Source: Nanobdellota archaeon
Lineage (GTDB): Archaea > Nanobdellota > Nanobdellia > Parvarchaeales > Parvarchaeaceae
Assembly: GCA_021852265.1 (NCBI GenBank)
Contig: JAJZNV010000014.1
Location: 1,566 to 65,565 of the forward strand
Direction of reading: 5' to 3'
Length of the DNA: 64,000 nucleotides
Part shown: one piece after another, positions 17,919 to 45,837 of the stretch
Layout of the letters: the number at the start of each line of letters is the position of its first letter
How positions within the stretch are numbered: position 1 is the stretch's first letter
Translations under genes and position numbers: made by a program
Notes under the pieces: generated by a model
Database searches by the model: none
What the model saw: only the letters and a program-made list of their open reading frames with translations
Told to the model about the DNA's origin: nothing

Positions 17919-17957
17919 CCAATAAGTATATAGCTTTGATTTGGTAAAAAGCAGTAT

Positions 17958-18052: not shown

Positions 18053-18152
18053 TTTTTTAATTCTGTATAAATTATAAATGATTTACACTGTATGGAGCCA
18101 GTGGTTTTTACCAAAAATAACGTATTTATAGTAGTTATATTCTAATAACTGC

Positions 18153-25385: not shown

Positions 25386-25509
25386 AATAACTTAAATTCT
25401 AAGTAAATATTTGCAGAAGCTATGGTATATAAAATTAAAGTAATAGGCTACCAGTTGAGTTCTGTGAAGCTCATTGCCAATTTTTTACCTTCAGGAGTAC
25501 TGATATTAT

Positions 25510-25581
25510 TGTCGGGGGTGGGATTTGAGCCCACGACCTCCACCTCATGAGGGTGGCGTACTACCGCTGTACTACCCCGAC
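25510..25581 (-). tRNA. tRNA with anticodon CAU (elongator Met or Ile2/agmatidine type)
   Basis: Hand-folded. The acceptor pairs GUCGGGG with CCCCGAC, with discriminator A. The D arm is GUAC-AGCGGUA-GUAC. The anticodon arm is CCACC-CUCAUGA-GGUGG. The T arm is GUGGG-CUCAAAU-CCCAC. There is no GGG/CCC run in the anticodon stem, so this is not an initiator. Confidence 0.8.
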
Positions 25582-25737
25582 ATAGAATGTGCAGTTATTT
25601 TAAAACCGCCTGCTGATTTTAATTGTATTCTCTTTGCAAATTTATGCTTTTTAGAGTATTCCGTTTTTAGGAAAATACGGCACAGGAGGTGCTTAGTAAA
25701 CTATTGATACCAAATACCTTCTAAGTGAATAATTGAT

Positions 25738-26341: not shown

Positions 26342-29300
26342 TTATGATTTATAACCTATGTGCAGCGTTACTGTACTACCTGCAGCGGCAGTTCCACTCG
26401 TCGGGCTGAAATAGTAGGAACTGAATGTTCCGGGATTATTCTGACAGTTCTTTGGACTTCCGCCATCCGAACTTACTGACCATTTATAGTTACCGCCTAT
26501 TTCATACCCATAATTCTGATTGTCCCAGAACGCTTCTGAAGAGCCATACTCATTAAGGTTCTGAGAACTGTCATAAGATGGAGTCCATTCACAGTTGTAA
26601 GGATTATTATCAGAAACTGCAAAGGTTGTTATTGTATAAAAATTAAAGGTATATGAACTACCCGGAGCGAGGGTGCCCGGTTCCAGACAGTCTCCATAAG
26701 AACATTGGTATGCATTCGAAGCGAGGGCGCCATATAAAAGTGCACCCGCTGAAGCTTGCGTGTCAGAACTGCCGTTGGTCGAATTCGAAATGTAGTATTG
26801 GCCAGTACTTCCAAACCCATCTACCTTTATGCTCGACGGGGCAGTAGCAGAAGCAGTCTGGCCTAAGTATTTTACACTCCAGCTAAAACCACTAGGTATA
26901 TTGTTTTCACTGAAAGTTGTGTAACAGTAGAAACCTATGTTTTGAGTAGAGGTACCTGGTCCGACATTCACGCTTCCAGAAGAAGGAGAAATTGTCGGAT
27001 TCAAACATTCCGAACCTATGTAGCTTACGCTATACTGATAATCTCCTAATGGGAGGCCATTCAATGTGATTGTTGATGCACTTGAACTAGACCAGCCACT
27101 TGTTCCCTGTCCATTAGTGTATGTAAGATTCCAAAACTCATTTAAGCCCTCGCCTGGATCACCGGTCTCACTAAATGTTAGCGAACAAGAAGTTGGGCTA
27201 AAGCTTATACTATTTATGGTGCCTGCTTCTATACTCCCAGTACCGGGGTTAGGGCTATAGACACAACCTCCTGCATTTGAGTTCGCTGTACTAAACTGAT
27301 AATACGTACTTGCTGTGGTGGAAAAGCCTATTGAAGATGCGGAAGAGCTTTGCGTGACTGCAGTGCTTAATGGATTAAGTGTAACGCTCCATGTGGTACC
27401 GCTAGGAAGACCTGTCTCAATAAATGTCGTTACGCAAGCAGAGTTTTTAGTAAATGCTATCTTAGTGGGGGAACCGCTAATCGGCAGGCTGCCAGAGGAT
27501 GGCGAAGGCGAGTAAGAACCACAAGAACCCACTGAATTTGGAGGATATGCTGTCGCAACCGAGAAAGAATAGCTACCCGCTGGGTTTAGATCGGAAACCG
27601 TCATATTCAAGGCAGTATCGGCCAGTGTAGTACCGCTGGTGTCATTAGCACTCTGAGTCACCCCTGCATATGTTACGTACCATACTGTATTAGCAGGTAG
27701 GCTGCTCTCCATGAAACCTATATTGCAGGTGTCCAAAAAGGTGACTGCATTTGACCCAGATGTCATCGGTGTGTAAGCAATGTAATTTGTCTTTTGCCCC
27801 ACGCCAACATTATTTGGAACATAAACATGCTGTGATGGAGGTGCAGAGAACTCACACTCTCCCCAATAAGTCTGCAAAGCACTTTGGATGAGAGATGAAG
27901 CCTGTGAGATGCTGTAATTTGAAATGATATAATTTCCTGGATTCTGTAAAAGTATCCCGTCGACAGGGGTGGATGCTGCTAAGGTAATATTCGGGCCGGT
28001 AGGGAGGTAAACCTCAGTAGAGCCACTTATATTCTTTACGCACTGTCCTTTGTATATCAAACAATACCACCACTTCAATGATTTTGCCGTATATTTACTA
28101 TAAGTAACACTCCAAAGCGTATTCGGAGGTATATTCGTCCTGTTAAAACTAACATAGGAGGGAGTAGATTTGGCTGAGGATGAGAATTGTACATATGTCG
28201 TCGATCCGGCAGTCACCGTTCCAGAGGTTGGTGAAGGCGGTTCGTCTGTAAGGTTTCCATAGTAGTTAGTCCCATATGAGTAACTATTAAGAGTTAATAC
28301 CCTCCCGGCAGACGGTAGTGTAAAGTAGAATAGCCCCGTATATGAATCATACGCGACGCTGCCCGCACACAAACTCAACGGAAGACCTATTGCTTTTAAT
28401 TTCGCATCAGTTGAATTATAAGCATCTATACTACAATTTCTTGAATTGACTGCGTATAAGTATCCATCTTTTGAATTAAATGTGAATCCTGTAGCAGCAG
28501 ACATCGAGCTTATGTTCTTTATTATGCTTTGCGATAACTGCGAGGATTCGGATTGTGTATTATTCGAGGAGTATACTCTATCTGAAATGTTAAGGATGTA
28601 TAAGCCATACGGCCCCCCTGTATACAACTTCCCATTCGCATAAAGCATTGTGTTTGTATTTATCACGTTTGCAGCAAGATACGCAAATACGGAATTCGAT
28701 GAAGGATTTATTACGCCGACGCCTCCACCAAGATCTACAAAGTAGACATAACCAACCGCCCCGATGTAATCTATCGCTCCCAGCCCTTGTGGTTTCGGAC
28801 CCTTGGTATTTTCATACACTTTAAGTGTAGCGACTATAGAATTAGAGCTAGTTGAGATAATAGAAATTGTCTGGGAAGTCGAATAATAGCCGCAGCCGGT
28901 TCCGCAAGAGCCTTCAAACGTTATTTTACCCTTATTGACAGTATATAGGTCTCCATTAGTAGGGTCATATGTTATTCCCAATGTTGTATTATCAGTATTT
29001 ATCACGGATACTACCGACGTTCCGCTTATAACCGAAATGCTGTTAGAGGCGCCATTTGCAACGTAGATGTACTGATTCTGAGGGTCGTATACAATTGCAT
29101 CTGGATTATTGCCAACGCCGCTTGTTATGTTTGCTATCACGGTATTACTGGTGGAAGAGATCACAGATATGCTATTGGAGGCGCCATTTGCAACGTAGAT
29201 GTACTGATTCTGAGGGTCGTATACAATTGCATCTGGATTATTGCCAACACGCAGAAGGTTTATATCGGCGTTATTTGCATATGAACTTATATTATAAGGA

Positions 29301-32300
29301 TAATTTCCGGCAGGTAAAATCGGGAAGACAATGGATGTTGACGAACCAGACAAAGATGTCTGTGTACTCTTTTTGAGTCCGCCGTAGTTTACTGTCCATG
29401 TATATCCTGCGGGAAGATTGTATTCCGTAAAAGTCGTGATGCAGCGTGTTGAGGAGTTTGCTTTCACATTTAACGTTGAACCTGCTTCCAACTTACCTGC
29501 AGAGGGCAGGAAGGAATAATAGGTTGTACACGTCGGATTTCCATTATTATCATAGGAAGAGTTTGATGCTGCGTACACTGAATAAGAATAATTCCCTACG
29601 TTTGTGAAGAAGCCTATATCTGTCGGGGAAAGTGACGAGTTCTGAGTACCAGCATAATTCACTGTCCAGCGCGCCCCGGAGATTAGTCCACTTTCTGCAA
29701 AGGTTGTTATGCATTTGACTGACGATATATTAAATACAATGTTAACTATGCTACCCGCAGATGCTCTGCCACTCCCAGGAACTGGAGAATATGTAGTGAA
29801 ACAACTACCTGATGAAACGGTTATGTTATCCACAAGAAAGCTAGGTTCTGCAAGTAGGGTGCCATTCACAAGTGCATCTATTTGGCTCACGTGTGATACG
29901 AAGTGTTTACCGGCGTATTTCATCTGCCAGCCAAACGTACTGAGGGTGGACTGAGGCAGCCCACTTTCTATAAATTCGGTAGGAGGATAAAAGGACAATT
30001 TTGATGTGCCTAAAGTCGTATTAACATCATAAACATTCACTGGAACTATGTTATAGCTCTTCGGTGATACTAAGAGGGTATAACTTATATTCCAAAGTGT
30101 CGGAAGATTGTATCCAAGGTAATACTGTGATCCGATGGTAAACGTTGTATTTCCTGGTGTCTGGTAAAGACAACTTACAATGTAGCCATAGAGCCTATTA
30201 TTTATGTTATTGCATTCTTCATCAGAAGATATATTCAAATGCCAGGTCCCCCCTGTGTACTGGGATGAAAATGATCTAGAGTTTCCATTGCTGCAATTAG
30301 CGTTAATACTATATGCGCTTCCGAGTGTGTCATAGACATTCACGGTCGGGTCAGCCGTGTTTCCTGTCTCACTAACACTGTAGAACTGCAACGCGTGAAG
30401 TCCCTGATTTAGGGCTCCAAGGGATAAATATATCCCATTCAAATACTGCTGTGGCAGGCTTTGACCGGAACAGAGTTGGCCTTCTCCCAGACCATACAAT
30501 GCATAATCTATATGATTTCCATTACCGCCGATGCAGTTGGCAGAGGTTCCCCCGGTAAAAATATTCATAGCATAATCATAAATGCTGCCATTCGCTAACG
30601 CAGGTATACCATATATCTTAAAGTACGGATTCTGCAATAGAAGTACATTCAGCAAATCAAAAGGATATACAGATGACTTGAAGAGTGCTGCCTGAGGAAT
30701 GTTAGACAAGAAAAGATTGCTTGGATACAATTTCGTAAAGATGTTATTTATTTCATACTGTGACACTGATAAACCGCTCATGTACTGGTCTTTTACCACA
30801 GCCTGTGACCCGCTCGGTGGAATTGACACATTTGTTGGAACTGTCGCATTGATAACACCTAAGCCTACACCTATTAAAGAGCTATTATCATACTGCAGCA
30901 CATATGAGGCGTTTACCTTGGCTGATATTCCAGAATGATACGCTATGCAACCATCCGTTACTGTTGGCGTCGTGTATCCTTCTGGTGCATTGTTGCAACC
31001 AAGTGGAGTTTGACCGTAACTTCCGTTATCTCCGCCGACTGGGGTTGAAATGAAAGTCGTATTAAATTTGATGTATTTCATTCCAAGACAGGATGTGGGG
31101 AGCGGTGGGATGGATTCATTGTAGGGCATATTATTTGCAGGAAGCGCACACGATTCTATAGTTCCCGAGTATCCTGCGGGGCAAGAATAAGTTGATTTAA
31201 AGTTCATTCCATTAGGACCCGAGAATGTTGTAGTCACTGCTGGCTGTGAAATATTGTATGCGTCCCTGGTTGCAAGGCATCCTCCAACCTCGGCGAGGGG
31301 ATACCCTTGTGCATTATTGGTTGTGGAGTATGGCATCCATTTTACCGCAATCCCACTTTGTATGTTTTCATTAATGAAGTCCGTTACATTGCCACAGAAA
31401 TTACTACTAAGCATTCCCGTCGGATTTGATTCTGAAACGCCTCCAGTAGAAACTGAACTCATAGTGATGCCTGATGAAACCAAGTTGGGAATGCTACCTG
31501 AAACGGTACATGAAAATGTGAGTACACCTGTATCCACGCCTATCTGTGTATTAGAATAGCTTGCTGCACAATTATTACCATTGTTTCCATAATCACACGA
31601 CACGGTTGTATTTGTATAGCGAGTGTGTGGCAAACCGATGCTTTGATTACCTGAGTAATACCAGCCGTTACAATTGAAGGACAGCGTATTTATTTGAATC
31701 TGGTTGCCAGAGTTCTCATTCGCATTCAACTGGTATTTCGCAGTGGCTTGAGAGGGGGCGGATACCTGTCCAGATTCGACTGCGGGAATTGATTCCAGTG
31801 ACAGCGCACCGTCTGTTGGCGCACATGAATATTGAGAAGTTATGAGACAGCCCCCTCCAATATAATCTGCCTTTGAGTTTCCGATAGTGCTATTTGGTAT
31901 CCCTTCTATGCCATCCAATGATCCATTCATAAGCTGAACCCCTCCTGCTATCGGGGCGGTACACGTTGTATAATTCTGCACCGTAGTATTAACAGGACAT
32001 GACATTATACTACCTGCATTCGAATTCAAACTCAATATAACTCCCCCACTTGGGAATGCAGACTGCATCAAAGGCGCAGTATGCGTGGCTAAGAAAGCTT
32101 CGGTCGGATTCTGAGGGTTATATTTTACCCATGAACCGTTTACATTTAATTGTGGCCAGGTAAGAACATACAGTTTTTCGGAGGATACAGTCTGTACACT
32201 GCCTTGACCAGTTATGTTGCCAGTTAATTCACAATTCCCATAAAGTGTTTCATTTAGACCCGATGCAGTCGTCAGGTTGTATATTCCAGGGATATAATTC

Positions 32301-35300
32301 AAGGCAACGGTCTCTCCCCGCGCGCCTGTGTAGTAATTGTTTGCACCCGATTCAGTTGTATACGTTGGTATCTCTCCAAAGATACAATAAGAGCTGGTGC
32401 CAGAGTACTGCAACTTCACACCTTGAAAGCCACTCCCAATAAGTGCGCCTGTCGATGTCTGATATGGATTCTGTATACACGCATTATTCTGCGTTATAAC
32501 ATATGTATCTGTTACAGGGTAACTATTCACTGCCTGAGAAACTATATACGATTTCGAATAGGAACCGTTATATCCAACGTCTTTTGGACCTGGCACGTAT
32601 AACTGTGAAGACATGGACGGTTGGACATAACTAAAGTTGGATATAAGATTATTATTTATATTAAAAGACAGCGCCTGTCCCTCGGAGAGTACACTATCCG
32701 TTACTACTGGCGCGCCATTGAAAAAGCAATAAAGACTCTGTACACTCTGTGAAGGATTTGTTATCTGGTACAAATTGTTCGAGTTATAATTAATTCCGCC
32801 GAAGCCAGTCTCATGCCAGATTAGTTGCTGGTTCGCAGAGTATGAGACTGTGAAGCACTTTGTTATAGAACCATCTACTGTCTCAGCTACTGAAGCCTGT
32901 GATGCAGAAACGTTATTCACGAGAAGATCTCCGACGGTTCCAAAATTACCAATCTTAAATCCTTCTAGGCACGGGCCAAGCGACGCCTTACAATTGCCCA
33001 AAAGAGTGGCAGTGTAAGCATCTGTCGTTACTAGGTCGCTGTATAGTGTAGATGATACATTCATCCAGTTACTGCTGTACGAAGCAGGGGACGGCTGCAC
33101 TCCTGCAAATATAAGATAACTATTGCGGTTGTACGCATTGAGCTTATTGAAAATAAAATCGTAAGTGCATTGTCCCGCAGATGATGAGACTACCTGGTAA
33201 GGTGTTTCAGCATAAGGATATGGTGAATCACCTAAAAATCTTACATTGTTGCACCCTCCCAAGTTCGGAAGAGAGAATGATACTGGGACTGCATTTGGAG
33301 ACGGTACATTTAGTGTAAGATTATAGACTGTGGACGGAGCATCCCCTATCGCAAAGGGTGAAATTTTTATAAAAGCGCCACTTTTTTGGGCTGTAGATGG
33401 AAACTCGAATCCTACTGCTCTTAGAACGTTCTGTCCAGGTGTGTTTTCTATAAAGCTTATACTATATTCTCCATTAGGATTAAGCCCCCCATTACAATTA
33501 TTTTGTGATCCTGAGTAATTTAGTACGCCATTATACACTACTGAATTCTGGCATATCGGAGTATATTTTACACTCGCGGGTGTACCGGGATTAGAGGATG
33601 GTATAGTAGACAATTCACTAAGGTTCAGGTCCTGTGAATCAACTGGCACACCATTATCTGTAATGAAAAGTGAAGATGGCGTGCCTTTGAGGTTATTCAT
33701 ATTTTGTATCGAAACACCGAGCCCGACATCTCCACTTCCAAGATATCCAGAATTAGTTTTGTTTATGAGGACGGCGCGGATATCCTGTACGGGGGCAGTA
33801 ATATTGCATAGTATTGTACCATTTGGTGCATAATATTCCCCAGGATGGCCAGCCGCAGTAACCCCGTTGTTACGCACCTGCCCCACATTATTGATTATAT
33901 TGCAATTGAAGGGAGTGTCGTTTGTGTTATATAGATAAAAGTCTATGTTGTTTATCACCCCATATTGTTGCAATGGTCCAAAAAGCAATGTAAATCCTTT
34001 ATTGCTAGCAGAGGCGGTCATGTTCAAAGACGCCGTGAATGCTGTACTGGAAGAGTAAGGATTAGTTGCATTTGACCACGCTAGTGCAGTTCCTCCCTGA
34101 CTGGTATTTGACAGGTTCATATCCGAGTTATTATACATCTGTACTGTGAACGGCGTCGATGAAGTTAATACCAGACTCGACTGATTCACCTGCTGCGGCG
34201 TATATGACAGCAATTTACTCGCAACGCAACTGGAGGGGGATATGGTTACGGTCTGGGCAGTTGTCGTCAAGCTAGATAAACTGCAGCCTGTAGATTGCCC
34301 ATTCAGATAAAGAACCGCTGTAATTTGCTTATTCACGAAACTGCTGTAATTTGCGATGTTTTGAGTGCCAAATATCCGTATTACAGACTTGTCACCCAAG
34401 AGAGAATTAACATTCAGTGAAAAACCGTATATCGAGGAAGGAACTGCTATCGGAGCAATATTTGGGATTAACCCTAATGCAGTGTATTCAGAAGAAAAGT
34501 TTCCGAACAACTGACTTTCAGCCCCCGCACCAAAGTAAGCAATCGCCTCATCTGCATATTGATTTGTGGAGGATTGATTTATAATTGGACGTTCTATTTG
34601 CATTGAAATGGAAGACGTGGGATATATTGGCAGGTTATTATAGTTAAGCACTGCCTGGTCTGCGTATGGCATGAATAATATACCGAGCCACCTCTTTACG
34701 AGTATATTCGACACAGAGCCATTCGGAGCATAGAAGTTTTGCACAGCATAACGTATATTTGGAGGAGAGACTGCCTGTGTAGTCCAGAATACACTAAAGT
34801 CCTGAATATTGTCCTGAGATGCAAAACATGACACTGACGATCCAGATAAGTTGAAGTCGGGCTGTAATCCAGTTGCCTTATCGCCATATGAACGATATGT
34901 ACGTGTTCCATTAACAAAAGTTACGGTAGGATTCAGTGTAACATTCAGTACTGACTGAGTAGAGTTTGGGGCAGATACTGAGAAATTAATAGAATCAGAG
35001 TAGATTCTACTTGCTCCAAACGGAGCTTTACTAAGATTCATCGAATAGGAAACTAGGTACTGCCACGTAGGTGATGGCGAAGTGCTCTTTGGATCTATAA
35101 TTTCGTTGTTAAAGCTGTTATTAAGGGCAGAAGGATCCGAGGATGGCAGAGGTTCTACATTGATGCTATTTGTGAAAAGCGTCGTAGTTGGAACATTATT
35201 CAAAGAGCCTGACCACGAAACATTGAACATGTTTCCGAAATATACACTTACATTATATTTGCCACCTAATAACTGCTTAAAAACGCCCATTGGAATCTCA

Positions 35301-37924
35301 ACGGTGAATGTGACAGTGCCATTAGGAGCTATTCTCGGGAGGCCGCTATTGCTAGAGTTAGCGTGGACTAGCAGAGTATTTGACGTCCTTATCACATTAG
35401 GTCCATTATTTAGTTGGCCCTGACCTGGAACTGACATCCACAACCCCAATAAGGAGTTATTGTATGGACCTGCCAGGTAGTTCGGATCGTTTGAAAGTAA
35501 TTCTTGCAATGGTACAGGATTTAGAGGATATTGCGGATTATAATAAAACATGTTTGTCTGCAGACTCCCATTGTATCTTACTTCTATAACGCCATTAGTG
35601 GATTGCATCTCTTTAAGGAAGTTATAATATCCAGAATACTGATTTTCTATAGAGGGATTACCGGCATTCTGGTTACTAGTGAACATCTGACTTATGTTTG
35701 TGTCCCGAAACAGCACTACCAAATAAGGATTTGTTATCTCAGAATTTCCTACGTTTTTCATAGTTATCACGAGTGGGACTTCAGAATTGTTTGAGTTGAA
35801 TACGGGACAGGTACCGAGCGTCTGGCCGAAAACCGTAGAATTTGCATAAGGTTTGGTTATGTCCTTTCTGCCTAGGAAATAGCCACAGAAATTGCCCGCA
35901 CCATTTGCAAGATAAATAGAACTTATCCAAGCATCGGTTACGTTTTGGGCAACTATCCCGTTAGGGGTACATTCAATATTATTCATGAATATACCGTCAT
36001 TAAAGTTGATATAAGTGCTATATGATGTGCTAAAACAATTCGTATTGTTAAAGAAACCATTACACTTGCCAATTGCAGAAGTATAATTCTCGCTTGCAAG
36101 CGGGGGAATTATTCTGGAATAGCTAGGAGGTGTATAAACACCTGTATTCTCATTGAAATTCTCTCCATAAAAGCAATAGCTATCAAGCTCTTTAGCCGTA
36201 AAGTTATTCAGAGGGTCTGCGGTATCATATTGTGGAGCAAAAGGTTGATCATTTATAACATTCTTGAAGCCAGAATACCCCTGACCTAATGTCCAGAATC
36301 TTATATAGGAGACCGGATTCACATAACTTGGATTCTCAAATGTGCAGTTTTTATAGATTGTTCCCGGCGGTGTACCTGCTGCATTATTTGTTAATGAGTT
36401 CCATCCGCAAAATGGGAAAACGCCGTCGGTCCTAAAGTAATCATAAGTGTAGGCGTTGCTCGAAGCTCCACTTGATATTCCGGGATAATAAGCCGACTGC
36501 AGATTTGGTACACTATAGGCGTTTTCAGGTAACGCAAGGTAGACACTCTTATTTATAGGGTATGTTATCAGCGGGTTCTCTAATGGATTTTTGAAGTTTA
36601 ACCTAGCGAGATTAGCTACGCTTAACAGTGAGAGGTTAGTCTCATACGGCACGATTGGTATCACTACAGACTGTCCGCCTATGCTTGGAGGATTACCGGT
36701 GTTAAAATAATCCGAAGGTATCGACAGTGAGAAAGGTCCTCCTACATTTAAATATTGCTGTTCACCTTTATTTCCGGCTGGGAAAGTCGCATTATTTAGA
36801 GTCGGCAAGGCAAAATTAAATGCAGATAAGATACTGGACTCTGCGGTTGGTGCTGCCAAATAATCATTTGCAAACGGTGGCCAGAAAACGTTGCCGAATA
36901 CATAAGTTATACTTACCCCGACCCCGTTATATGCAGCTAGACCTACTGAGGGGGTATAACCACTAAGTGACATTATTGCGGGTATACCGCTTTTCCCTGG
37001 AAATTTGAAGTTCACATAATTATTAGGAAATGTTCCACCGCAGGATATTGCGGGAATTATAAGTGTAGAAGGAGCCGGCAGAGCCGATGGACTGGTCTGT
37101 CCTCCCTGATTATTGCTTGGCGGGTAGAATGCAGGATTCAGCGCATAGTAATATGGCGATGAGCCGTACTCATAAAGATATTTTGATGCACTCCAGTTAA
37201 AGAAGTTCGGATATGTTGCACTAGGATCATTGGCATAAGAGTTACCTGCGACAGTTATCGTGCTGCCCGTAGGGCTCGGTAAACAATAATTTGGATTTGA
37301 TACGTCAAACCCATTTAATTCTGCAGCGATTAAATCTGGAAAATTAAATGAACCGCTATTGCCAGGCTTACAGCTTTGAGCCCCGCTCTCAACTGCGCCG
37401 CCACTTTCTGTTTCCGGAAATCCTAAGTATCCCACTATATTGGAATATGTTTGCACTGTGGCGCTGCCTGAGACAGTATAAAGCCATGGGAAGCATGGAC
37501 CGCCTGGCCATAGAGGTGGAAGGTTAAGTGCACATCCCCATTGCCAATGAGGGGGCGTCAAATAATTCTCTGCACTGCAAGCCCCTGTACCGCCCGTATT
37601 TGCAGCCCCACTTATAAATTTCTCATTGAACCAGAAGTTAGAGTTTATGACGCCGGAACCGCCGCACGTGCCAGCCCCTCCGATACACTCACTACTCTGT
37701 ATTGCAGAGCTTACACCCGAGCTGGCATAAGTATTTACACCTATGTGCATACTTTCAAGCGCCGTTATATTCTGTTGTGACGGCCCTTGGCGCATACTAT
37801 AAGTAGACCCGTTATTTGTGATTCCAACACTATAATTGTTTAAAAGTAGGTGCGTTGACGATATAATAAGTAGTGCAACTATCCCCACTATCAGCATATA
37901 ATTTATGGATTTCATATTCCCCAC
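26342..37924 (-). CDS. Giant secreted or cell-surface glycoprotein (3860 aa). It has an N-terminal hydrophobic anchor, YVTN-type beta-propeller repeats, and about seven C-terminal ~100-aa repeated Cys-anchored modules.
   Basis: This is an uninterrupted 11.6-kb ORF. The N-terminus is MGNMKSINYMLIVGIVALLIISS. Composition is dominated by N/S/T/G/Y with hundreds of N-x-S/T sequons. Repeated 41-44 aa units NPDAIVYDPQNQYIYVANGASNSISVI match YVTN beta-propeller blades. The C-terminal third repeats C-[IV]-TTF-x-E-x-[GN]-[LI]-P-x-G-x-x-W-x-V-x-Y at least seven times. Confidence 0.8.
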   Translation of the reverse strand: MGNMKSINYMLIVGIVALLIISSTHLLLNNYSVGITNNGSTYSMRQGPSQQNITALESMHIGVNTYASSGVSSAIQSSECIGGAGTCGGSGVINSNFWFNEKFISGAANTGGTGACSAENYLTPPHWQWGCALNLPPLWPGGPCFPWLYTVSGSATVQTYSNIVGYLGFPETESGGAVESGAQSCKPGNSGSFNFPDLIAAELNGFDVSNPNYCLPSPTGSTITVAGNSYANDPSATYPNFFNWSASKYLYEYGSSPYYYALNPAFYPPSNNQGGQTSPSALPAPSTLIIPAISCGGTFPNNYVNFKFPGKSGIPAIMSLSGYTPSVGLAAYNGVGVSITYVFGNVFWPPFANDYLAAPTAESSILSAFNFALPTLNNATFPAGNKGEQQYLNVGGPFSLSIPSDYFNTGNPPSIGGQSVVIPIVPYETNLSLLSVANLARLNFKNPLENPLITYPINKSVYLALPENAYSVPNLQSAYYPGISSGASSNAYTYDYFRTDGVFPFCGWNSLTNNAAGTPPGTIYKNCTFENPSYVNPVSYIRFWTLGQGYSGFKNVINDQPFAPQYDTADPLNNFTAKELDSYCFYGENFNENTGVYTPPSYSRIIPPLASENYTSAIGKCNGFFNNTNCFSTSYSTYINFNDGIFMNNIECTPNGIVAQNVTDAWISSIYLANGAGNFCGYFLGRKDITKPYANSTVFGQTLGTCPVFNSNNSEVPLVITMKNVGNSEITNPYLVVLFRDTNISQMFTSNQNAGNPSIENQYSGYYNFLKEMQSTNGVIEVRYNGSLQTNMFYYNPQYPLNPVPLQELLSNDPNYLAGPYNNSLLGLWMSVPGQGQLNNGPNVIRTSNTLLVHANSSNSGLPRIAPNGTVTFTVEIPMGVFKQLLGGKYNVSVYFGNMFNVSWSGSLNNVPTTTLFTNSINVEPLPSSDPSALNNSFNNEIIDPKSTSPSPTWQYLVSYSMNLSKAPFGASRIYSDSINFSVSAPNSTQSVLNVTLNPTVTFVNGTRTYRSYGDKATGLQPDFNLSGSSVSCFASQDNIQDFSVFWTTQAVSPPNIRYAVQNFYAPNGSVSNILVKRWLGILFMPYADQAVLNYNNLPIYPTSSISMQIERPIINQSSTNQYADEAIAYFGAGAESQLFGNFSSEYTALGLIPNIAPIAVPSSIYGFSLNVNSLLGDKSVIRIFGTQNIANYSSFVNKQITAVLYLNGQSTGCSLSSLTTTAQTVTISPSSCVASKLLSYTPQQVNQSSLVLTSSTPFTVQMYNNSDMNLSNTSQGGTALAWSNATNPYSSSTAFTASLNMTASASNKGFTLLFGPLQQYGVINNIDFYLYNTNDTPFNCNIINNVGQVRNNGVTAAGHPGEYYAPNGTILCNITAPVQDIRAVLINKTNSGYLGSGDVGLGVSIQNMNNLKGTPSSLFITDNGVPVDSQDLNLSELSTIPSSNPGTPASVKYTPICQNSVVYNGVLNYSGSQNNCNGGLNPNGEYSISFIENTPGQNVLRAVGFEFPSTAQKSGAFIKISPFAIGDAPSTVYNLTLNVPSPNAVPVSFSLPNLGGCNNVRFLGDSPYPYAETPYQVVSSSAGQCTYDFIFNKLNAYNRNSYLIFAGVQPSPASYSSNWMNVSSTLYSDLVTTDAYTATLLGNCKASLGPCLEGFKIGNFGTVGDLLVNNVSASQASVAETVDGSITKCFTVSYSANQQLIWHETGFGGINYNSNNLYQITNPSQSVQSLYCFFNGAPVVTDSVLSEGQALSFNINNNLISNFSYVQPSMSSQLYVPGPKDVGYNGSYSKSYIVSQAVNSYPVTDTYVITQNNACIQNPYQTSTGALIGSGFQGVKLQYSGTSSYCIFGEIPTYTTESGANNYYTGARGETVALNYIPGIYNLTTASGLNETLYGNCELTGNITGQGSVQTVSSEKLYVLTWPQLNVNGSWVKYNPQNPTEAFLATHTAPLMQSAFPSGGVILSLNSNAGSIMSCPVNTTVQNYTTCTAPIAGGVQLMNGSLDGIEGIPNSTIGNSKADYIGGGCLITSQYSCAPTDGALSLESIPAVESGQVSAPSQATAKYQLNANENSGNQIQINTLSFNCNGWYYSGNQSIGLPHTRYTNTTVSCDYGNNGNNCAASYSNTQIGVDTGVLTFSCTVSGSIPNLVSSGITMSSVSTGGVSESNPTGMLSSNFCGNVTDFINENIQSGIAVKWMPYSTTNNAQGYPLAEVGGCLATRDAYNISQPAVTTTFSGPNGMNFKSTYSCPAGYSGTIESCALPANNMPYNESIPPLPTSCLGMKYIKFNTTFISTPVGGDNGSYGQTPLGCNNAPEGYTTPTVTDGCIAYHSGISAKVNASYVLQYDNSSLIGVGLGVINATVPTNVSIPPSGSQAVVKDQYMSGLSVSQYEINNIFTKLYPSNLFLSNIPQAALFKSSVYPFDLLNVLLLQNPYFKIYGIPALANGSIYDYAMNIFTGGTSANCIGGNGNHIDYALYGLGEGQLCSGQSLPQQYLNGIYLSLGALNQGLHALQFYSVSETGNTADPTVNVYDTLGSAYSINANCSNGNSRSFSSQYTGGTWHLNISSDEECNNINNRLYGYIVSCLYQTPGNTTFTIGSQYYLGYNLPTLWNISYTLLVSPKSYNIVPVNVYDVNTTLGTSKLSFYPPTEFIESGLPQSTLSTFGWQMKYAGKHFVSHVSQIDALVNGTLLAEPSFLVDNITVSSGSCFTTYSPVPGSGRASAGSIVNIVFNISSVKCITTFAESGLISGARWTVNYAGTQNSSLSPTDIGFFTNVGNYSYSVYAASNSSYDNNGNPTCTTYYSFLPSAGKLEAGSTLNVKANSSTRCITTFTEYNLPAGYTWTVNYGGLKKSTQTSLSGSSTSIVFPILPAGNYPYNISSYANNADINLLRVGNNPDAIVYDPQNQYIYVANGASNSISVISSTSNTVIANITSGVGNNPDAIVYDPQNQYIYVANGASNSISVISGTSVVSVINTDNTTLGITYDPTNGDLYTVNKGKITFEGSCGTGCGYYSTSQTISIISTSSNSIVATLKVYENTKGPKPQGLGAIDYIGAVGYVYFVDLGGGVGVINPSSNSVFAYLAANVINTNTMLYANGKLYTGGPYGLYILNISDRVYSSNNTQSESSQLSQSIIKNISSMSAATGFTFNSKDGYLYAVNSRNCSIDAYNSTDAKLKAIGLPLSLCAGSVAYDSYTGLFYFTLPSAGRVLTLNSYSYGTNYYGNLTDEPPSPTSGTVTAGSTTYVQFSSSAKSTPSYVSFNRTNIPPNTLWSVTYSKYTAKSLKWWYCLIYKGQCVKNISGSTEVYLPTGPNITLAASTPVDGILLQNPGNYIISNYSISQASSLIQSALQTYWGECEFSAPPSQHVYVPNNVGVGQKTNYIAYTPMTSGSNAVTFLDTCNIGFMESSLPANTVWYVTYAGVTQSANDTSGTTLADTALNMTVSDLNPAGSYSFSVATAYPPNSVGSCGSYSPSPSSGSLPISGSPTKIAFTKNSACVTTFIETGLPSGTTWSVTLNPLSTAVTQSSSASSIGFSTTASTYYQFSTANSNAGGCVYSPNPGTGSIEAGTINSISFSPTSCSLTFSETGDPGEGLNEFWNLTYTNGQGTSGWSSSSASTITLNGLPLGDYQYSVSYIGSECLNPTISPSSGSVNVGPGTSTQNIGFYCYTTFSENNIPSGFSWSVKYLGQTASATAPSSIKVDGFGSTGQYYISNSTNGSSDTQASAGALLYGALASNAYQCSYGDCLEPGTLAPGSSYTFNFYTITTFAVSDNNPYNCEWTPSYDSSQNLNEYGSSEAFWDNQNYGYEIGGNYKWSVSSDGGSPKNCQNNPGTFSSYYFSPTSGTAAAGSTVTLHIGYKS
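29046..29250 (-). repeat. Perfect in-frame tandem duplication (at least 72 identical nt, period 132 nt, 44 codons) inside the giant gene, duplicating one propeller blade
   Basis: ggaggcgccatttgcaacgtagatgtactgattctgagggtcgtatacaattgcatctggattattgccaac occurs at 29046 and again at 29178. The antisense ORF 29056..29376 correspondingly shows QRRCTDSEGRIQLHLDYCQ twice. Confidence 0.85.
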
Positions 37925-37985
37925 ATAACGTTCTTAAATCTAATCGAATCTGTTAAATTTAACTTTTTATTGTGTTTCATACGGT

Positions 37986-41597: not shown

Positions 41598-42171
41598 AAA
41601 CGGTATATGGGTTTTCTGGATTTACTGGGTTAAAAACTGACAGTGAACAGACCGTTGAACCAGATGAAGCAGGCGGAATCTGATTCAGATAAACTTTCAT
41701 CCCCAGAGTCTGTAGCGTAATCGCGGAGCCGGATGCTATGTTGTTGAATGAACTTACTGAAAAAGAGGAAAAATAATTTATGAAATTTGAAAATAACGAA
41801 GTAAAATTAGTAAGCGAGTTTGACAAGACTGTATAACCGAGATTACAGCTTGTGCCACAATGAGCGGATAGAGAGGTCTGTTGGGAGGATAATGCAGTTT
41901 CGTACTGGGAAGGATGCTGCAAAGCAAGCGTATTTAGTGCCGCTGGCGTATCTACATAATAGCCGCTAAATAAGCTATCTAATGCAAAATTACATGTTTG
42001 GATAGAGGGTTCCTGGTTTACTGCAGTTATTAGACTGGCAGTCTGATTTTGTAAAAATGCTACTGCCAAAACTGATAAGATAACCGCCACCATAGGTACT
42101 AATACCAAATCCAGTATTGTTAGCTGCCCTCTTCGTGATTTGATTAGTTCCATATCAAGGTGATATCCCAT
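41581..42171 (-). CDS. Small pilin-like protein (196 aa) with class III signal peptide
   Basis: MELIKSRRG|QLTILDLVLVPMVAVILSVLAVAFL has RRG followed by Gln at +1 and a hydrophobic helix, loosely matching the euryarchaeal pilin QxSxExxxL pattern (here Q-x-T-x-L-D-x-x-L). There are 17-nt overlaps on both sides. Confidence 0.65.
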   Translation of the reverse strand: MGYHLDMELIKSRRGQLTILDLVLVPMVAVILSVLAVAFLQNQTASLITAVNQEPSIQTCNFALDSLFSGYYVDTPAALNTLALQHPSQYETALSSQQTSLSAHCGTSCNLGYTVLSNSLTNFTSLFSNFINYFSSFSVSSFNNIASGSAITLQTLGMKVYLNQIPPASSGSTVCSLSVFNPVNPENPYTVFGVLS

Positions 42172-42955
42172 AGCTTATTCCTACTTCTAAAACGCCCGTG
42201 TCCTGGTATAACGGCTGCCCTTGTGCGTTACTGAACTCTATATCGACCGGAAATGATTCAGTATACGTATCCTGAGCTGCGAGCGCAGATAAAAGAGAGT
42301 ATTGAGGAGCTATACTGTTGTGCGAATTTGAGGCCACCGCGACTATAATATTAAGTCCAAGTGAAGCAAAACTAACGGAGCTGAGCGCAACGCTAGCAGC
42401 TATGCTTGCGGCCATTGCCGCGTATTCCGCATATTTTGCTTCAGTATTAATTGAATTTTCCAGTCCTGGAAATTTTGAACCTATATTCAGTTGCGGGTAG
42501 TTCGAGAGTGTTATGGTGCCACTTGGTCCTAGATCACTCGGATTTTGCGTATCGACTAACGTTAAAGAAATTCCAGTAAAAGCGGCAAGCTGACTTGGGA
42601 GTGCTGGCAGGTTTGTTGCACCTCCAAAGTATATATATTGTATACAAGAAAGGAAATTATTTGTCACGAACTTATTAAAGTCAACGACGCCGGGCTGCGT
42701 ATCTGTAACCGAGAATATCGGACCACCTTGTATACCAGAATTATTATTATAATAATTCATGTTCGACTGGTAAGCGAAGCAATTCGGAGAAGTTATCAAT
42801 CTCGTACCGATAGCCGCTGCTACGGATTTCGCGTTCGCAAACACTGCAACACTGTTAATATTTGAAACGTTTACGGAAAGAACTATCAGCAATAGAGCAA
42901 ATGACATAACCAGGATGCCTGCATTTGTAAACGCCATTAGTTGGGTGAGTGCCAT
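42155..42955 (-). CDS. Membrane-anchored S/A/N-rich protein (266 aa) with N-terminal hydrophobic segment and a second hydrophobic Ala/Ser-rich segment
   Basis: The ATG lies immediately after the stop of the 858-aa gene (GGAGGTTAA-ATG) with a GGAGGT SD. The N-terminus is MALTQLMAFTNAGILVMSFALLLIVL. Confidence 0.55.
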   Translation of the reverse strand: MALTQLMAFTNAGILVMSFALLLIVLSVNVSNINSVAVFANAKSVAAAIGTRLITSPNCFAYQSNMNYYNNNSGIQGGPIFSVTDTQPGVVDFNKFVTNNFLSCIQYIYFGGATNLPALPSQLAAFTGISLTLVDTQNPSDLGPSGTITLSNYPQLNIGSKFPGLENSINTEAKYAEYAAMAASIAASVALSSVSFASLGLNIIVAVASNSHNSIAPQYSLLSALAAQDTYTESFPVDIEFSNAQGQPLYQDTGVLEVGISYGISP

Positions 42956-45532
42956 TTAACCTCCAGATAACACCTTTAGTATGGGCGTGAACCCAAATAG
43001 ATTTGTATTCGAAAGCGAGTTTGATACATAGGTACCCCCAAGAGAATTATAATTATTTGGGTATATGCCGAATAGAAGGCTATCTGAAACTGAAGTTATA
43101 TTGAAATCTGAGACGCCATCCGCCGCGATGGTCTTAACGACCGTAAAAGTAACATTTGCATAATCGGTAGGATAATAAGAAAGTGCATTATTACCTGCGT
43201 CATTTAACAGTGCCGAAACAATGTAGCTTCCAAGCGCATTCTGTCCAGATACTTGTAGAGAATTCAATGCGCCCTGTAATTTACTCTGCCAGTTCTTACC
43301 TAAGAGAGATACCATAAAATTAACCGATGGCGAATCCACACCCATAGACTGCTTAACTGTGGGAGATGGACCACCTATAAAATTACTCGTGGATTGGAAA
43401 GTTGAACTTTCTTGGGGGTTTATCGTTAGTTGATTTGGATAATCGCCTGGTGGTATCGAGAAGCCTACCTGCGAGGGATCATTGAAGAGAAACGAATTTT
43501 TGTTAATGTTACTGCCCAGGTTAAATGCACGCTCACCAAATATTAGATTTTCATGTCCATTTGTAAGATTCGTAACGTTTATGCATGACATAGTAAGTCC
43601 GTACTCAGTAAGATATCCTTGACCAAGTCCGTTTCCACTGGGGGCAATCTCCGAGAAGGGGTTCCCATTTCCATCCAATAACATCCTGTTCAAACAGATT
43701 TTTGAACTGCCGGTAGAGTTTGACAATGATACGGAAAACTGCGACGGCACGAGGATGCTTACGGTAAATGTATTTTGTTTATCTGTTAGCATCTGATTAA
43801 CCATGTCTGAAATAGTTTTTGGGTATAGTGCACTTAGGCTTGAGCACATAGTGTTGTACATCCCCTGTGTCAATGAGAACGAGATATCTCCGTTGCCAGC
43901 AGGAAATACTAACGTAGCTAAATTACCATTCACATCTGGAGTAGTGGTTGCGATACTACATAGGTCGGACAGGTCTGTTATTATTGGTGCCCCACTCAAG
44001 GTTGGTATTCCATTTGACTGGCCGTTAACGTATAATTCACCACCATAACCAACAAAATAGGTACCGATATTCGTCACGACATTTAGTTTATTGTAGAAAT
44101 CTACTGGACTAGTTATTTCCCCGTATGCCTGCAGCCCTTTGCTTAAGATATTGTTTAGGCTTATTCCCTGTGGCATTGAACCTAAACACGAGGCAGTTTG
44201 TGCATACACCAAAAGGGATTTTCTTGCAAGAAAACCAACTGAGGAAAGCAGAGGGTCCCCTGCTCCATTAAACTTGACATTGCCTATAAATGAGTTATCC
44301 GCACTAAGAGAGGCTGGAGTTCCAACGCCGGCAGAAGGCGTATTATAAGCACCTACAGCGGGTTGGTTTGCAGCATATTGTCCCAGTTGACTAAAAATCT
44401 GTTGCTGGAGATTAGCGTTACCGATAACTAATTGTATGGCATTATAAGTCTGTGGATTTACAGTTTGACTACTAGCAAAATCGCCCGCAGATGAAGCGAG
44501 TGTAGTATACTGCTGTAATTGCAGGTTTATAGCCGCGTCCTGTGATGCTATTGGCGCGCCAGTATCATAGCTAGCCGCAACGGTGTTTGCCTGTACTTGC
44601 GCATTGGAAGGTATCCCACCTATTGTATTACCTGCTACAGAGAACCCGTTGGTGATAACATTATAAACCGTGCTAAAAGGATTAGTAACTACGCTAGAGC
44701 CAGGGGCGCCTGCTGATAGCCAGAAAACCAAGCCTATCTGCCCTATATTAGCACCTAATTTAGTCAGAAAATTTGCATTTCGATATGTGTCGTAAATGTC
44801 CTGTACTTTCTTTATGTTTGAATATGCCTTTCCAAGATAAGAAAGTACCAATTCAGAGTAGCTTGTGGGTGTGATTATCCCGCTAAATACATCGCTCTTC
44901 TGCTGAATAAATCTCTTTGCTTGGGCAGTTAGACTCGGATTATCTGCCCTATTAAATAAAGCATCCAAGCCTTCCATTGCTTGAGCTTCCCGCTCCGGGC
45001 CGAATTGTTCGTTAAAGGCTAATCTTGCAGACCTATAAGTACGCTTATATATTGTTGTCGCCAATGCTTCCTCCCCAAAATCATTTTCTGCACTAATTGC
45101 GGCTTCACTAAGTGAGTCAACCTCTGCAGAGGCCTCATCTGCTGCTGATGCAGCTTTCGGACCTGGCGGACCGACAGTCAACATAAAACACAGTGCTACG
45201 CTGAATGTATTCGTGCCCACATCCAGAGTAGGGCCGCTTGCGTATGATACATTGTATATTTTGGACCCTCCGCCGCAATTATATGCATCTGTAGAGGGGT
45301 CCCAAGTACAAAGTGAGTTATTCCCAGATAAGGTTATGCTCAAAGAAGAAGGCGCCATATAGAGTGCATTTTTCACTGCGGCCAGATTATTAGCAAATAA
45401 CTGCAGAGAGTTCGCACCGTTCTGAAAAAAGAGCCCTTGCATGTTTGCAAAATAAATCCCTACCAAAAGAAATGCTGCGGAGATTATGACTATCGCTATA
45501 CCTATGACTATCTGTGCATTCTTGCCTAACAT
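42956..45532 (-). CDS. Large pilin-like or membrane-anchored Asn/Ser/Thr/Gly-rich surface protein (858 aa); first gene of the operon
   Basis: The N-terminus is MLGKNA|QIVIGIAIVIISAAFLLVGIYF, giving Lys, Ala at -1, Gln at +1 and a hydrophobic helix. There is an internal Ala/Glu-rich helical segment. A TATA-like element lies about 33 nt upstream. Confidence 0.65.
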   Translation of the reverse strand: MLGKNAQIVIGIAIVIISAAFLLVGIYFANMQGLFFQNGANSLQLFANNLAAVKNALYMAPSSLSITLSGNNSLCTWDPSTDAYNCGGGSKIYNVSYASGPTLDVGTNTFSVALCFMLTVGPPGPKAASAADEASAEVDSLSEAAISAENDFGEEALATTIYKRTYRSARLAFNEQFGPEREAQAMEGLDALFNRADNPSLTAQAKRFIQQKSDVFSGIITPTSYSELVLSYLGKAYSNIKKVQDIYDTYRNANFLTKLGANIGQIGLVFWLSAGAPGSSVVTNPFSTVYNVITNGFSVAGNTIGGIPSNAQVQANTVAASYDTGAPIASQDAAINLQLQQYTTLASSAGDFASSQTVNPQTYNAIQLVIGNANLQQQIFSQLGQYAANQPAVGAYNTPSAGVGTPASLSADNSFIGNVKFNGAGDPLLSSVGFLARKSLLVYAQTASCLGSMPQGISLNNILSKGLQAYGEITSPVDFYNKLNVVTNIGTYFVGYGGELYVNGQSNGIPTLSGAPIITDLSDLCSIATTTPDVNGNLATLVFPAGNGDISFSLTQGMYNTMCSSLSALYPKTISDMVNQMLTDKQNTFTVSILVPSQFSVSLSNSTGSSKICLNRMLLDGNGNPFSEIAPSGNGLGQGYLTEYGLTMSCINVTNLTNGHENLIFGERAFNLGSNINKNSFLFNDPSQVGFSIPPGDYPNQLTINPQESSTFQSTSNFIGGPSPTVKQSMGVDSPSVNFMVSLLGKNWQSKLQGALNSLQVSGQNALGSYIVSALLNDAGNNALSYYPTDYANVTFTVVKTIAADGVSDFNITSVSDSLLFGIYPNNYNSLGGTYVSNSLSNTNLFGFTPILKVLSGG

Positions 45533-45554: not shown

Positions 45555-45575
45555 CCCGGTTATTTATAGCTTAGA
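45555..45575 (-). promoter_or_regulatory. Candidate archaeal TATA/BRE promoter for the surface-protein operon
   Basis: The reverse complement reads gcTATAAATAAccggg, centred about 33 nt upstream of the ATG at 45532. Confidence 0.3.
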
Positions 45576-45766
45576 TTCTTTGCTACTCAATTAAAGATAA
45601 AAACAATTAGAAACCCTTTTTCTATAAAGGACGCCCACCTCTAATTTTTCAGATAATTTGGGGCGAACGAGCCGGTTTTATTATAGAAAGAGACACAAAT
45701 TATTGTGGCTGCTCCAATAAACCCTCTCCTTTTTATTCAAAAAGGCACAAGAATATAAAACTAAAC

Positions 45767-45837
45767 GCCTCGAGCAGGATTCGAACCTGCAACCCTTTGG
45801 TTAACAGCCAAATGCTCTGCCGTTGAGCTATCGAGGC
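45767..45837 (-). tRNA. tRNA-Asn (anticodon GUU)
   Basis: Hand-folded. The acceptor pairs GCCUCGA with UCGAGGC, with discriminator G. The D arm is GCUC-AACGGCA-GAGC. The anticodon arm is UUUGG-CUGUUAA-CCAAA. The T arm is GCAGG-UUCGAAU-CCUGC. Confidence 0.8.

Follow-up and report, generated by a model that had tools for sequence, protein, structure and literature searches.

A conserved five-gene module of Parvarchaeales with pilin-type components as a candidate surface adhesin system

Parvarchaeales are DPANN archaea that live attached to other archaea, and by what means DPANN archaea recognise their hosts and hold on to them is not yet settled. We analysed a 64,000-nucleotide stretch of DNA (hereafter the window; positions 1,566 to 65,565 of contig JAJZNV010000014.1, assembly GCA_021852265.1) from a Parvarchaeum-type (ARMAN-4/5-like) DPANN archaeon; near-identical cluster-mates of one window protein bear the name "Candidatus Parvarchaeota archaeon". 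Our subject is a module of five co-directional minus-strand genes, here named A to E, which occupies 19.2 kb or 30% of the window (Table 1). A preliminary description had taken these genes for an operon of five giant, heavily N-glycosylatable pilin-like proteins, and had suggested that they encode a surface fibre or adhesin system. The results below support a surface or adhesin system with pilin-type components, and they limit the pilin assignment to some of its members.

Results

Organization of the five genes

All five open reading frames (ORFs) lie at the coordinates first given for them, and direct reading of the sequence bears out the A/B junction (GGAGGT-TAA-ATG, a Shine-Dalgarno sequence with abutting stop and start codons) and the 61-nt gap ahead of the GTG of the giant ORF E. 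Of the reported sizes (858, 266, 196, 1203 and 3860 residues), those of A and B stand; public gene calls on contigs bearing a protein identical to A, together with orthologue alignments, place the starts of C, D and E at internal ATG codons, giving true lengths of 858, 266, 190, 1197 and 3857 residues for A to E. With these internal starts the supposedly identical 17-nt overlaps at B/C and C/D become artefacts of taking the longest ORF. They have the same length and different sequences, and the real junctions both read TGA-T-ATG. The TAA-ATG and TGA-T-ATG junctions suggest that translation is coupled, and junctions so tight and probably coupled would be more expected of a complex with fixed stoichiometry than of a major pilin made in large amounts. 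The TATA-like box ahead of A, close to the promoter position of 45565 proposed earlier, is likely to be the promoter of a leaderless or near-leaderless operon transcript.

One NCBI assembly contains a 449-residue protein (P0023) that shares the cluster of B and C and, judged from its length and cluster membership alone, appears to be B (266 residues) and C (190 residues) joined. The most likely cause is a one-base difference at the TGA-T-ATG junction, as a frameshift or an assembly error; were the fusion genuine, the class III signal of C would be buried within a larger protein.

Table 1. Features of the A-E module and its surroundings (window coordinates; aa, amino acid residues; arrows mark predicted prepilin cleavage sites)
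Feature	Position	Strand	Longest ORF	Description
TATA-like box TATAAATA	45561..45568	-		about 30 nt upstream of the first ATG (A); read directly from the sequence
Gene A, 858 aa	42956..45532	-	42956-45532	relaxed class III-like N-terminus MLGKNA↓QIVIG...
Gene A, Ala/Glu-rich stretch, aa ~125-260	~44750-45160	-		poorly conserved
Gene B, 266 aa	42155..42955	-	42155-42955	hydrophobic N-terminus without a basic leader (MALTQLMAFTNAG-ILV...)
Gene C, 190 aa	41581..42153	-	41581-42171	starts at second ATG; canonical class III signal MELIKSRRG↓QLTILDLVLVP...
Gene D, 1197 aa	37986..41579	-	37986-41597	starts at second ATG; canonical class III signal MKNRKG↓QANIIAMVGM...
Gene E, conserved core, aa 1 to ~2640 of 3857	29996..37915	-	26342-37924 (all of E)	variable Sec-type N-terminal signal or anchor
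Gene E, C-terminal extension, aa ~2640-3857	26342..29995	-		absent or unalignable in three aligned orthologues
YVTN beta-propeller repeats in E, aa ~2885-2990	28946-29263	-		within the extension
tRNA-Asn(GTT)	45766-45837	-		same strand as the operon, ~230 nt upstream
Interval between operon end and Hjc-like nuclease gene	23557-26307			extra genes in the window (next four rows)
189-aa orphan ORF		+
tRNA-Met(CAT)	25509-25582
Transposase-like helix-turn-helix ORF	24906-25385
305-aa orphan ORF
97-nt 'tRNA-???'	17957-18053	+		ARAGORN call, four-base anticodon (tgag)
526-aa ORF	49911-51491	-		beside Lhr

Conservation of gene order and chromosomal position

Scanning species-representative genomes with an alignment of the D family yielded 28 loci, including those of Ca. 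Parvarchaeum acidiphilum ARMAN-4 and Ca. P. acidophilus ARMAN-5, the remainder coming from metagenome-assembled genomes labelled Parvarchaeota, Nanoarchaeota, Woesearchaeota or archaeon. The order A-B-C-D-E and its tight packing are kept wherever a contig covers the locus, with E always last, and the orthologues of A to E measure about 800-920, 270, 190, 1140-1270 and 2550-3310 residues, and E of the window is the largest. In genomes 37-55% identical the module occupies the same chromosomal position, between CCA-adding enzyme/Lhr and Hjc-like nuclease/LonB, which points to vertical descent of the module and speaks against a mobile island. Conservation is greatest in the small proteins B and C, and A and E diverge fastest. 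Two loci are size outliers (L034, 9995-14710; L036, 4742-8602), with a D-position frame of 1572 residues (stop to stop) as against ~1150 in one species and an A-position frame of 1287 residues as against ~820 in another, which suggests that extra modules have been inserted.

The module also occurs in three distant lineages (L039, L040 and L041) at 20-30% identity. The L039 locus, located by a metagenome scan with a four-sequence alignment of distant D relatives, belongs to Ca. Haiyanarchaeum thermophilum and encodes module proteins of 674, 278, 213, ~820 and 2537 residues. Four of them match their window counterparts (A, E = 2e-12; B, 5e-22; D, 1e-10; E, 5e-12 with further collinear segments), and the protein in the C position starts MSRG↓ILTVFEL. 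Taken over some 30 species and the three distant lineages, the conservation of gene order and of N-terminal motifs exceeds what chance would give.

Directly upstream of A in all three distant lineages lies a run of small proteins with class III (type IV prepilin) signals. A protein of 115-164 residues starts MKAQ↓GLP(L/I)NTIVL in each of them; the others include several of 47-66 and ~129 residues starting MKRG↓, MKKAQ↓ or MKKAA↓, and larger ones starting MKKG↓ (265 residues), MRKG↓ (219 residues) and MKRKA↓ (497 residues). These families are conserved among L039, L040 and L041, the small proteins have only sub-threshold Flp1-like matches in Pfam, and no homologue of the families was detectable in the window or at any Parvarchaeum locus. 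In the relatives, then, the module forms the downstream half of a pilin-like gene cluster, and the acidophilic lineage retains only A-E at this site.

In the same three lineages the module stands within a longer co-directional cluster that carries no annotation (L039, 796-6492; L040, 428-6227 and 19224-22814; L041, 930-5395 and 17749-21614). Its upstream part also encodes proteins of ~335-543 and ~470-500 residues with N-terminal hydrophobic segments, several very small class III proteins and two paired products of ~250-290 and ~215 residues; its downstream part, in L040 and L041, encodes a ~300-residue thrombospondin-type-3-repeat protein and a ~1000-residue protein.

N-terminal signals of A, B and C

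Every one of the five products has a single N-terminal hydrophobic segment, as had been noted, and B has a second, weaker one near residues 189-207. A strict FlaFind-type pattern, tried at all start codons of all ORFs of 60 residues or more in the six frames of the window, matched C and D only. The three class III N-termini proposed earlier thus reduce to two canonical signals; that of A is a relaxed variant (K-N-A↓Q) and can be called borderline, and B and E do not qualify.

C is, on sequence criteria, the most pilin-like member of the module. In all of about 30 species its N-terminus follows the pattern [KR][KR]-G↓Q-[LIV]-T-x-[LIV]-D, with Ala replacing Gly at -1 once, and the leader varies in length while conservation starts exactly at the predicted cleavage site. 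In an order-wide alignment Gly at -1 and Thr at +3 are invariant, position +6 is acidic and the C terminus keeps the motif Cys...V-[YF]-[ND]-P; the protein has four conserved cysteines. An AlphaFold2 model (mean predicted local distance difference test score, pLDDT, 56) places a long helix at residues 12-46, right after the predicted cleavage site, and a three-stranded beta-sheet (pLDDT ~80) at the C terminus.

The first ~120 residues of A are highly conserved and are followed by a variable, charged Ala/Glu-rich region and then by a beta-rich remainder. Among the N-termini recovered from about 25 species, Gln at +1 is universal and the -1 residue is Ala in 17, Thr in 6, Gly in 1 and Ser in 1. 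B carries a conserved SPNCFAY motif.

A-E were searched, as single sequences and as family profiles, against Pfam, NCBIfam and the proteins of known structure, and the YVTN repeats of E gave the only match. A has no Pfam, NCBIfam or Protein Data Bank (PDB) sequence match and B no Pfam or NCBIfam family; no hit to the pilin and archaellin models of Pfam and NCBIfam passed a cut-off, all matches being sub-threshold (DUF7248, Flp1_like). No catalytic domain of either database was found, in line with the earlier statement that the proteins lack catalytic motifs. Paralogy among A-E was considered and set aside, neither BLASTP nor profile-profile comparison having detected any.

D, a large class III protein with a predicted lectin-like domain

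In all of about 30 species the N-terminus of D follows the pattern [KR]-G↓Q-[AV]-N-[IMF]-I. Behind it D is built from an N-terminal module of ~185 residues and a central module, both common to its distant relatives, and a beta-rich C-terminal part, with many invariant cysteines. The AlphaFold2 model has a mean pLDDT of 55, the N-terminal 144 residues scoring below 50. In this predicted structure the C-terminal part forms a concanavalin A (ConA)/galectin-like beta-sandwich jelly roll that superposes on galectins, legume lectins or carbohydrate-binding modules, and D is accordingly predicted to bear a domain of the ConA-like lectin/glucanase superfamily. D has no Pfam hit, and so no sequence-level match to a ConA-like lectin family.

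The D family is small. A word-indexed search returned only 41 clusters, all of them full-length, and when 1.84 billion representative proteins were searched exhaustively with a HMMER profile, just 30 reached E ≤ 0.001. Beyond the orthologues comes a group of proteins of 690-940 residues that share the N-terminal ~185 residues and the central module and that are rich in charged residues, which indicates that they come from non-acidophiles. Most of the distant relatives begin [KR]-[G/A/S]↓Q-x-N after a leader of 2-9 residues; the exceptions are one that starts MKG↓QEG and two that are truncated and start inside the hydrophobic stretch.

The giant protein E

The N-terminus of E is hydrophobic, is not conserved among species and looks, from its sequence, like a non-class III signal for export through Sec; the L041 orthologue has a clear Sec cleavage site (...SIAQA↓IDC). 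Beyond it the core is a Cys-rich, low-charge region whose last ~470 residues are the best conserved. Residues 1-2885 of the window protein match the entire 2895-residue orthologue of L008, while conservation over three orthologues stops near residue 2640; residues ~2640-2885 are shared in part and those beyond ~2885 are missing, so that the last ~970-1200 residues of E are absent from, or only partly shared with, the orthologues compared.

This extension contains the YVTN beta-propeller repeats, which match the YVTN domain of PDB entry 1l0q (E = 3e-17) and score above cut-off with TIGR02276. Its homologues are YVTN/YncE propeller surface proteins of many lineages; we had considered whether it derives from a Thermoplasmatales host, and rejected this because the spread of its relatives points to no specific donor. 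BLASTP found no internal repeats in E. Pfam and NCBIfam showed no homology to the C-terminal propeller of PilY1/PilC or to DUF2341, the only matches being the YVTN/lactonase-type repeats within the extension, and no S-layer domain of either database in the conserved parts, the similarity to 1l0q being confined to the non-conserved extension. The Haiyanarchaeum giant, which matches E of the window collinearly (E = 5e-12 to 3e-7), carries a Pfam-significant Laminin_G_3 (ConA-like) domain.

Amino acid composition and glycosylation sequons

The extreme Asn/Ser/Thr/Gly/Tyr content ascribed to the five proteins is real: these residues make up 39-48% of A-E as against 29% of eight housekeeping proteins from the same window. 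Lys, Arg, Asp and Glu together make up 6-10% as against 25%. The proteins do not, however, hold the hundreds of N-x-S/T sequons for which they had been called heavily N-glycosylatable. A to E contain 7, 2, 2, 32 and 99, or 142 in all. Compared with composition-matched shuffles, A (z = -2.2), B (-1.3) and C (-0.9) lie at or below expectation and D (1.7) and E (2.2) slightly above it, so that the abundance of sequons is a by-product of amino acid composition. We read the odd composition as a probable signature of exposure to very acidic water rather than of unusual glycosylation, and count the low charge and the many conserved cysteines as sequence-based support for an extracellular location.

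The Ala/Glu-rich stretch of A departs from this pattern. Charged residues reach ~23% at residues 101-200 of A as against 3-12% elsewhere in the protein, which is odd for a region presumably facing water of pH ~1; the stretch might serve as a flexible linker or lie towards a protected compartment.

Assembly genes

Genes for a pilus ATPase, platform or prepilin peptidase were sought with Pfam on 30 of the larger flanking ORFs of the window, a Walker A scan of both strands at ~37 loci, a scan for ORFs with multiple transmembrane segments and GxGD motifs, and a 10-kb extension to the right. None was found in the window or in the 10 kb past its right end, which agrees with the earlier statement that no PilB/FlaI-like ATPase, PilC/FlaJ-like platform or prepilin peptidase is encoded nearby, and at none of the loci scanned does the 10 kb around the module contain a Walker A motif of the FlaI type.

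Published data indicate that such genes are present elsewhere in genomes of the lineage. In Table S6 of Rao et al. 2023 (PMC10134863), which covers 44 genomes, the VirB11/FlaI-type ATPase arCOG01818 occurs in 44 of 44. The FlaK prepilin peptidase (K07991) occurs in 41, among them every one of the 15 acidophilic Ca. Parvarchaeota with ARMAN-4 and -5, and TadC (arCOG01812) in 14 of those 15 (PMC10134863). PilA-type pilins (arCOGs 03871 and 02420) are, apart from a single genome, confined to Jingweiarchaeum and Haiyanarchaeum (PMC10134863). For the lineage, as represented by these related genomes, the table thus supports the suggestion that the assembly genes lie elsewhere. With ATPase, FlaK and TadC present and PilA-type families almost absent, the acidophilic lineage possesses machinery without annotated substrates, for which C, D and A are obvious candidates.

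Genomic neighbourhood

The flanks of the module consist of archaeal housekeeping genes (CCA-adding enzyme, Lhr, LonB, Hjc-like nuclease, RtcB/archease, Mre11/Rad50-like proteins, aIF2-alpha and aRF1), and a ribosomal-protein/SecY cluster is located past the right end of the window. The tRNA-Asn(GTT) gene keeps its position in L004, L006, L008, L011, L017, L019 and L037, in L004 even with different genes further upstream. It is absent at the module of L034 and of Haiyanarchaeum. Asn accounts for 8-11% of the operon proteins.

The extra genes that separate the operon from the Hjc-like nuclease gene may represent a small insertion at a tRNA; L008 is without them, its Hjc-like gene following within ~200 nt of E, and L006 and L037 have a tRNA-Met there. 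Elsewhere in the window, the ARAGORN call with a four-base anticodon is probably an intron-containing archaeal tRNA, and the window also encodes tRNA-splicing endonuclease, RtcB and archease. The 526-residue ORF beside Lhr belongs to no Pfam family, has weak NCBIfam membrane-protein matches and is conserved among close relatives, with cluster members of 489-526 residues.

Discussion

Taken together, these data lead us to favour, as probable yet well short of assured, a reading of A-E as a type IV filament minor-pilin/adhesin module for host attachment. The genes would form one operon that in Parvarchaeales supplies the adhesive components, as opposed to the motor, of a type IV filament system resembling archaeal type IV pili. 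C, D and, in most species, A would be made as prepilins and cut between Gly/Ala and Gln by the FlaK/PibD-type peptidase of the genome. A single FlaI/VirB11-type ATPase with a TadC platform, both encoded elsewhere, would then extract the hydrophobic N-terminal helices from the membrane, and these may bundle into a short stalk or pilus-tip (priming) complex, whose assembly and stoichiometry we infer. D would be a modular pilin displaying a lectin-like domain. E would be a Sec-exported, non-pilin giant adhesin, presumably tethered to the complex in the way that bacterial minor pilins hold PilY1, with its variable C-terminal end (here a YVTN propeller) contacting the host surface, and B could be an accessory membrane-anchored or non-canonical pilin-like subunit. 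A role in attachment to host cells seems likely and fits the host dependence of these archaea and the contacts between ARMAN and Thermoplasmatales hosts, which the cryo-electron tomography literature describes as pili-like and Velcro-like. Of the original proposal, then, the surface fibre or adhesin system gains pilin-type parts (the class III signals of C and D, traceable from Parvarchaeum to Haiyanarchaeum) and a predicted lectin-like domain in D. The five giant pilins do not survive: E has a variable Sec-type N-terminus, B no basic leader, and A has lost its motif in Haiyanarchaeum.

Several observations weigh against a type IV filament module. A-E have no sequence match to a known pilin, PilY1 or adhesin family. 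At none of about 30 loci does a gene for an ATPase, platform or peptidase lie within 10 kb of the module, and the machinery data, taken from a published table, concern related genomes and not the one to which the window belongs. No small major-pilin candidate occurs in the window or beside the module in Parvarchaeum. The N-terminal evidence is uneven: the Haiyanarchaeum orthologue of A (E = 2e-12) starts MAEEIP, which is not class III, six species have Thr at -1 of A, and in B (MAL-x-E-M-M-A-F-L-N-A-G-I-L...) no species has a basic residue ahead of the hydrophobic stretch. The model of C, itself weak (mean pLDDT 56), gave no significant fold match and no pilin-fold match; overall confidence is low for both modelled proteins, C and D (pLDDT 55-56), and the lectin-like beta-sandwich is a very common fold.

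With no small major-pilin candidate, a true filament may not exist in the Parvarchaeum lineage. One could go further and suppose, as an unlikely extreme, that ARMAN-4/5-type cells lost their conventional pilins and that their sole remaining motor and prepilin peptidase assemble only this module, as a filament-less 'tip-only' organelle in which processed A, C and D form a membrane-rooted stub holding a Sec-exported adhesin of 2,600-3,900 residues. Were this so, the module would give the Velcro-like or synapse-like ARMAN-Thermoplasmatales contacts their molecular identity, and the fast-evolving C-terminus of the giant would set host specificity.

The proteins might instead belong to the cell envelope, as an S-layer-associated or other complex unrelated to pilus machinery, whose N-termini are uncleaved anchors or Sec signals and which forms part of the wall or a static 'Velcro' layer. 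The single N-terminal hydrophobic segment of all five proteins, the missing class III motif in B and E and the failure to find assembly genes nearby would all suit such a complex, as would the place of the module amid housekeeping genes at a conserved chromosomal position, which befits a core envelope component. The low-charge, Cys-rich composition would likewise suit any acid-exposed wall protein, and the sole solved relative of any part is the Methanosarcina S-layer YVTN domain. That YVTN part, however, is missing from the orthologues compared, and the conserved parts contain no S-layer family domain. An anchor, moreover, would have no need of the strict conservation of Gly at -1, Gln at +1, Thr at +3 and an acidic residue at +6 around a predicted cleavage site whose leaders vary, and in relatives the module is contiguous with small class III pilin-like genes. 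We think an envelope complex rather unlikely.

The module could also be a bindosome-like assembly or pseudopilus, with the class III proteins as a short, periplasm-like scaffold close to the membrane that positions the large binding proteins D and E for capture of host-derived glycans or nutrients instead of adhesion between cells. The Sulfolobus bindosome provides known cases of large globular proteins with class III signals, lectin- or carbohydrate-binding-like folds are found in D (predicted) and in the Haiyanarchaeum giant, Parvarchaeum has no recognised major pilin, and the tight translational coupling suggests a complex of fixed stoichiometry. Yet A-E contain no solute-binding-protein or transporter domain and no ABC transporter adjoins the module, a 3857-residue propeller protein is more typical of adhesins, and DPANN biology points towards host attachment, which makes a capture scaffold quite unlikely. 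Least credible of all, and to be regarded as highly improbable, is a mobile island, viral or integrative, that carries receptor-binding proteins and was inserted beside a tRNA gene. A tRNA-Asn lies directly upstream and a tRNA-Met downstream, a transposase-like helix-turn-helix ORF is found past the 3' end, upstream genes differ on one contig (L004), and GC content is slightly above that of the flanks. The GC shift follows from the amino acid composition, integrase, capsid and terminase genes are missing, and divergence is proportionate over all five genes. We rejected the island on the strength of the chromosomal position, which is conserved across genomes only 37-55% identical.

The favoured reading of A-E as a minor-pilin/adhesin module would provide a concrete candidate set for the way in which ARMAN/Parvarchaeum cells recognise and hold hosts; we found no named attachment gene cluster for ARMAN/Parvarchaeota in the literature. 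Its candidacy rests on the universality of the module in the lineage, on its very large share of a very small genome, on its having the only class III signals in this region and on its complementing a pilus motor and peptidase that otherwise lack annotated substrates. If the reading is right, host range might be predicted from metagenomes by way of the variable end of E, and antibodies or tags directed at D and E could reveal the contact apparatus in cryo-electron tomography.

Among known systems, the closest in design are the tip minor-pilin complexes of bacteria with their adhesive effectors, GspH-I-J-K or FimU-PilVWX with PilY1 in diderms and PilA-PilB-PilC in Streptococcus sanguinis (PMC9934059, PMC8179133). 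As there, several different proteins with class III signals are encoded together, only one small subunit (C) retains an acidic residue near the N-terminus, and the same operon encodes a very large non-pilin, Sec-exported protein (E) comparable with PilY1; D, with its predicted lectin-like domain, can be likened to the modular minor pilin PilC of S. sanguinis. The differences are considerable: A-E share no sequence homology with these proteins, are archaeal, carry Gln at +1, with the acidic residue placed at +6 instead of +5, exceed their counterparts two- to fourfold in size (D, 1197 residues; E, 3857 residues), stand apart from assembly genes and, in the acidophilic lineage, lack a recognised major pilin. 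The propeller of E, unlike that of PilY1, is of the YVTN type and is missing from the orthologues compared.

For archaea, an existing model of pilus loci combines minor pilins and one or two large, adhesin-like proteins bearing conserved cysteines (Makarova, Koonin & Albers 2016, PMC4858521), and a 2026 survey of type IV filament loci describes PilY-like and immunoglobulin-rich adhesins in them (bioRxiv 10.64898/2026.04.22.720090). Archaeal pilins evolve fast and escape family models, and 'dark-matter' pilins have been noted in DPANN archaea (PMC4858521; bioRxiv 10.64898/2026.04.22.720090). The A-E module resembles these loci in combining FlaFind-positive proteins with a large signal-peptide protein and conserved cysteines. 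It differs in that those loci are defined by an adjacent ATPase and TadC, which A-E never have within 10 kb, and in that no A-E protein matches a pilin, DUF2341 or adhesin model of Pfam.

The Sulfolobus bindosome consists of sugar-binding proteins with class III signals, large and globular, that are assembled by the pilus-like Bas system. It shows that large size does not exclude processing by prepilin peptidase; A-E differ from it in having neither solute-binding domains nor neighbouring transporters, their predicted domains being a lectin-like fold and a propeller. The SPEARE proteins, which are described with protease, adhesion and nuclease domains, offer a parallel for E, which has none of these domains in Pfam and which sits in a pilin-like operon. 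Like the SPEARE proteins of Nanohaloarchaeota (PMC6642349), E is an extracellular protein of several thousand residues, at least by prediction, from a host-dependent DPANN archaeon and is proposed to act in host contact. With the surface-layer YVTN/PKD fragment of Methanosarcina mazei (PDB 1l0q), E shares the YVTN repeats (E = 3e-17), the match being limited to residues ~2885-2990 in an extension without orthologue counterpart.

Since class III-signal giants and large adhesins of pilus loci thus have precedents, the sizes of A-E are less exceptional than was first stated, when pilins of 858-3860 residues were held to be far outside the usual range. The kind of system, minor pilins with large adhesins and modular lectin pilins, is already known. 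New are the protein families A-E, uncharacterised and extremely narrowly distributed; a protein of 1197 residues with what its sequence marks as a canonical class III signal; a five-gene architecture that is stable across an order of DPANN archaea and lies apart from the motor genes; and the case of acidophiles apparently without any conventional pilin. D would extend the idea of the modular pilin to archaea and, at ~1200 residues, well beyond the bacterial examples.

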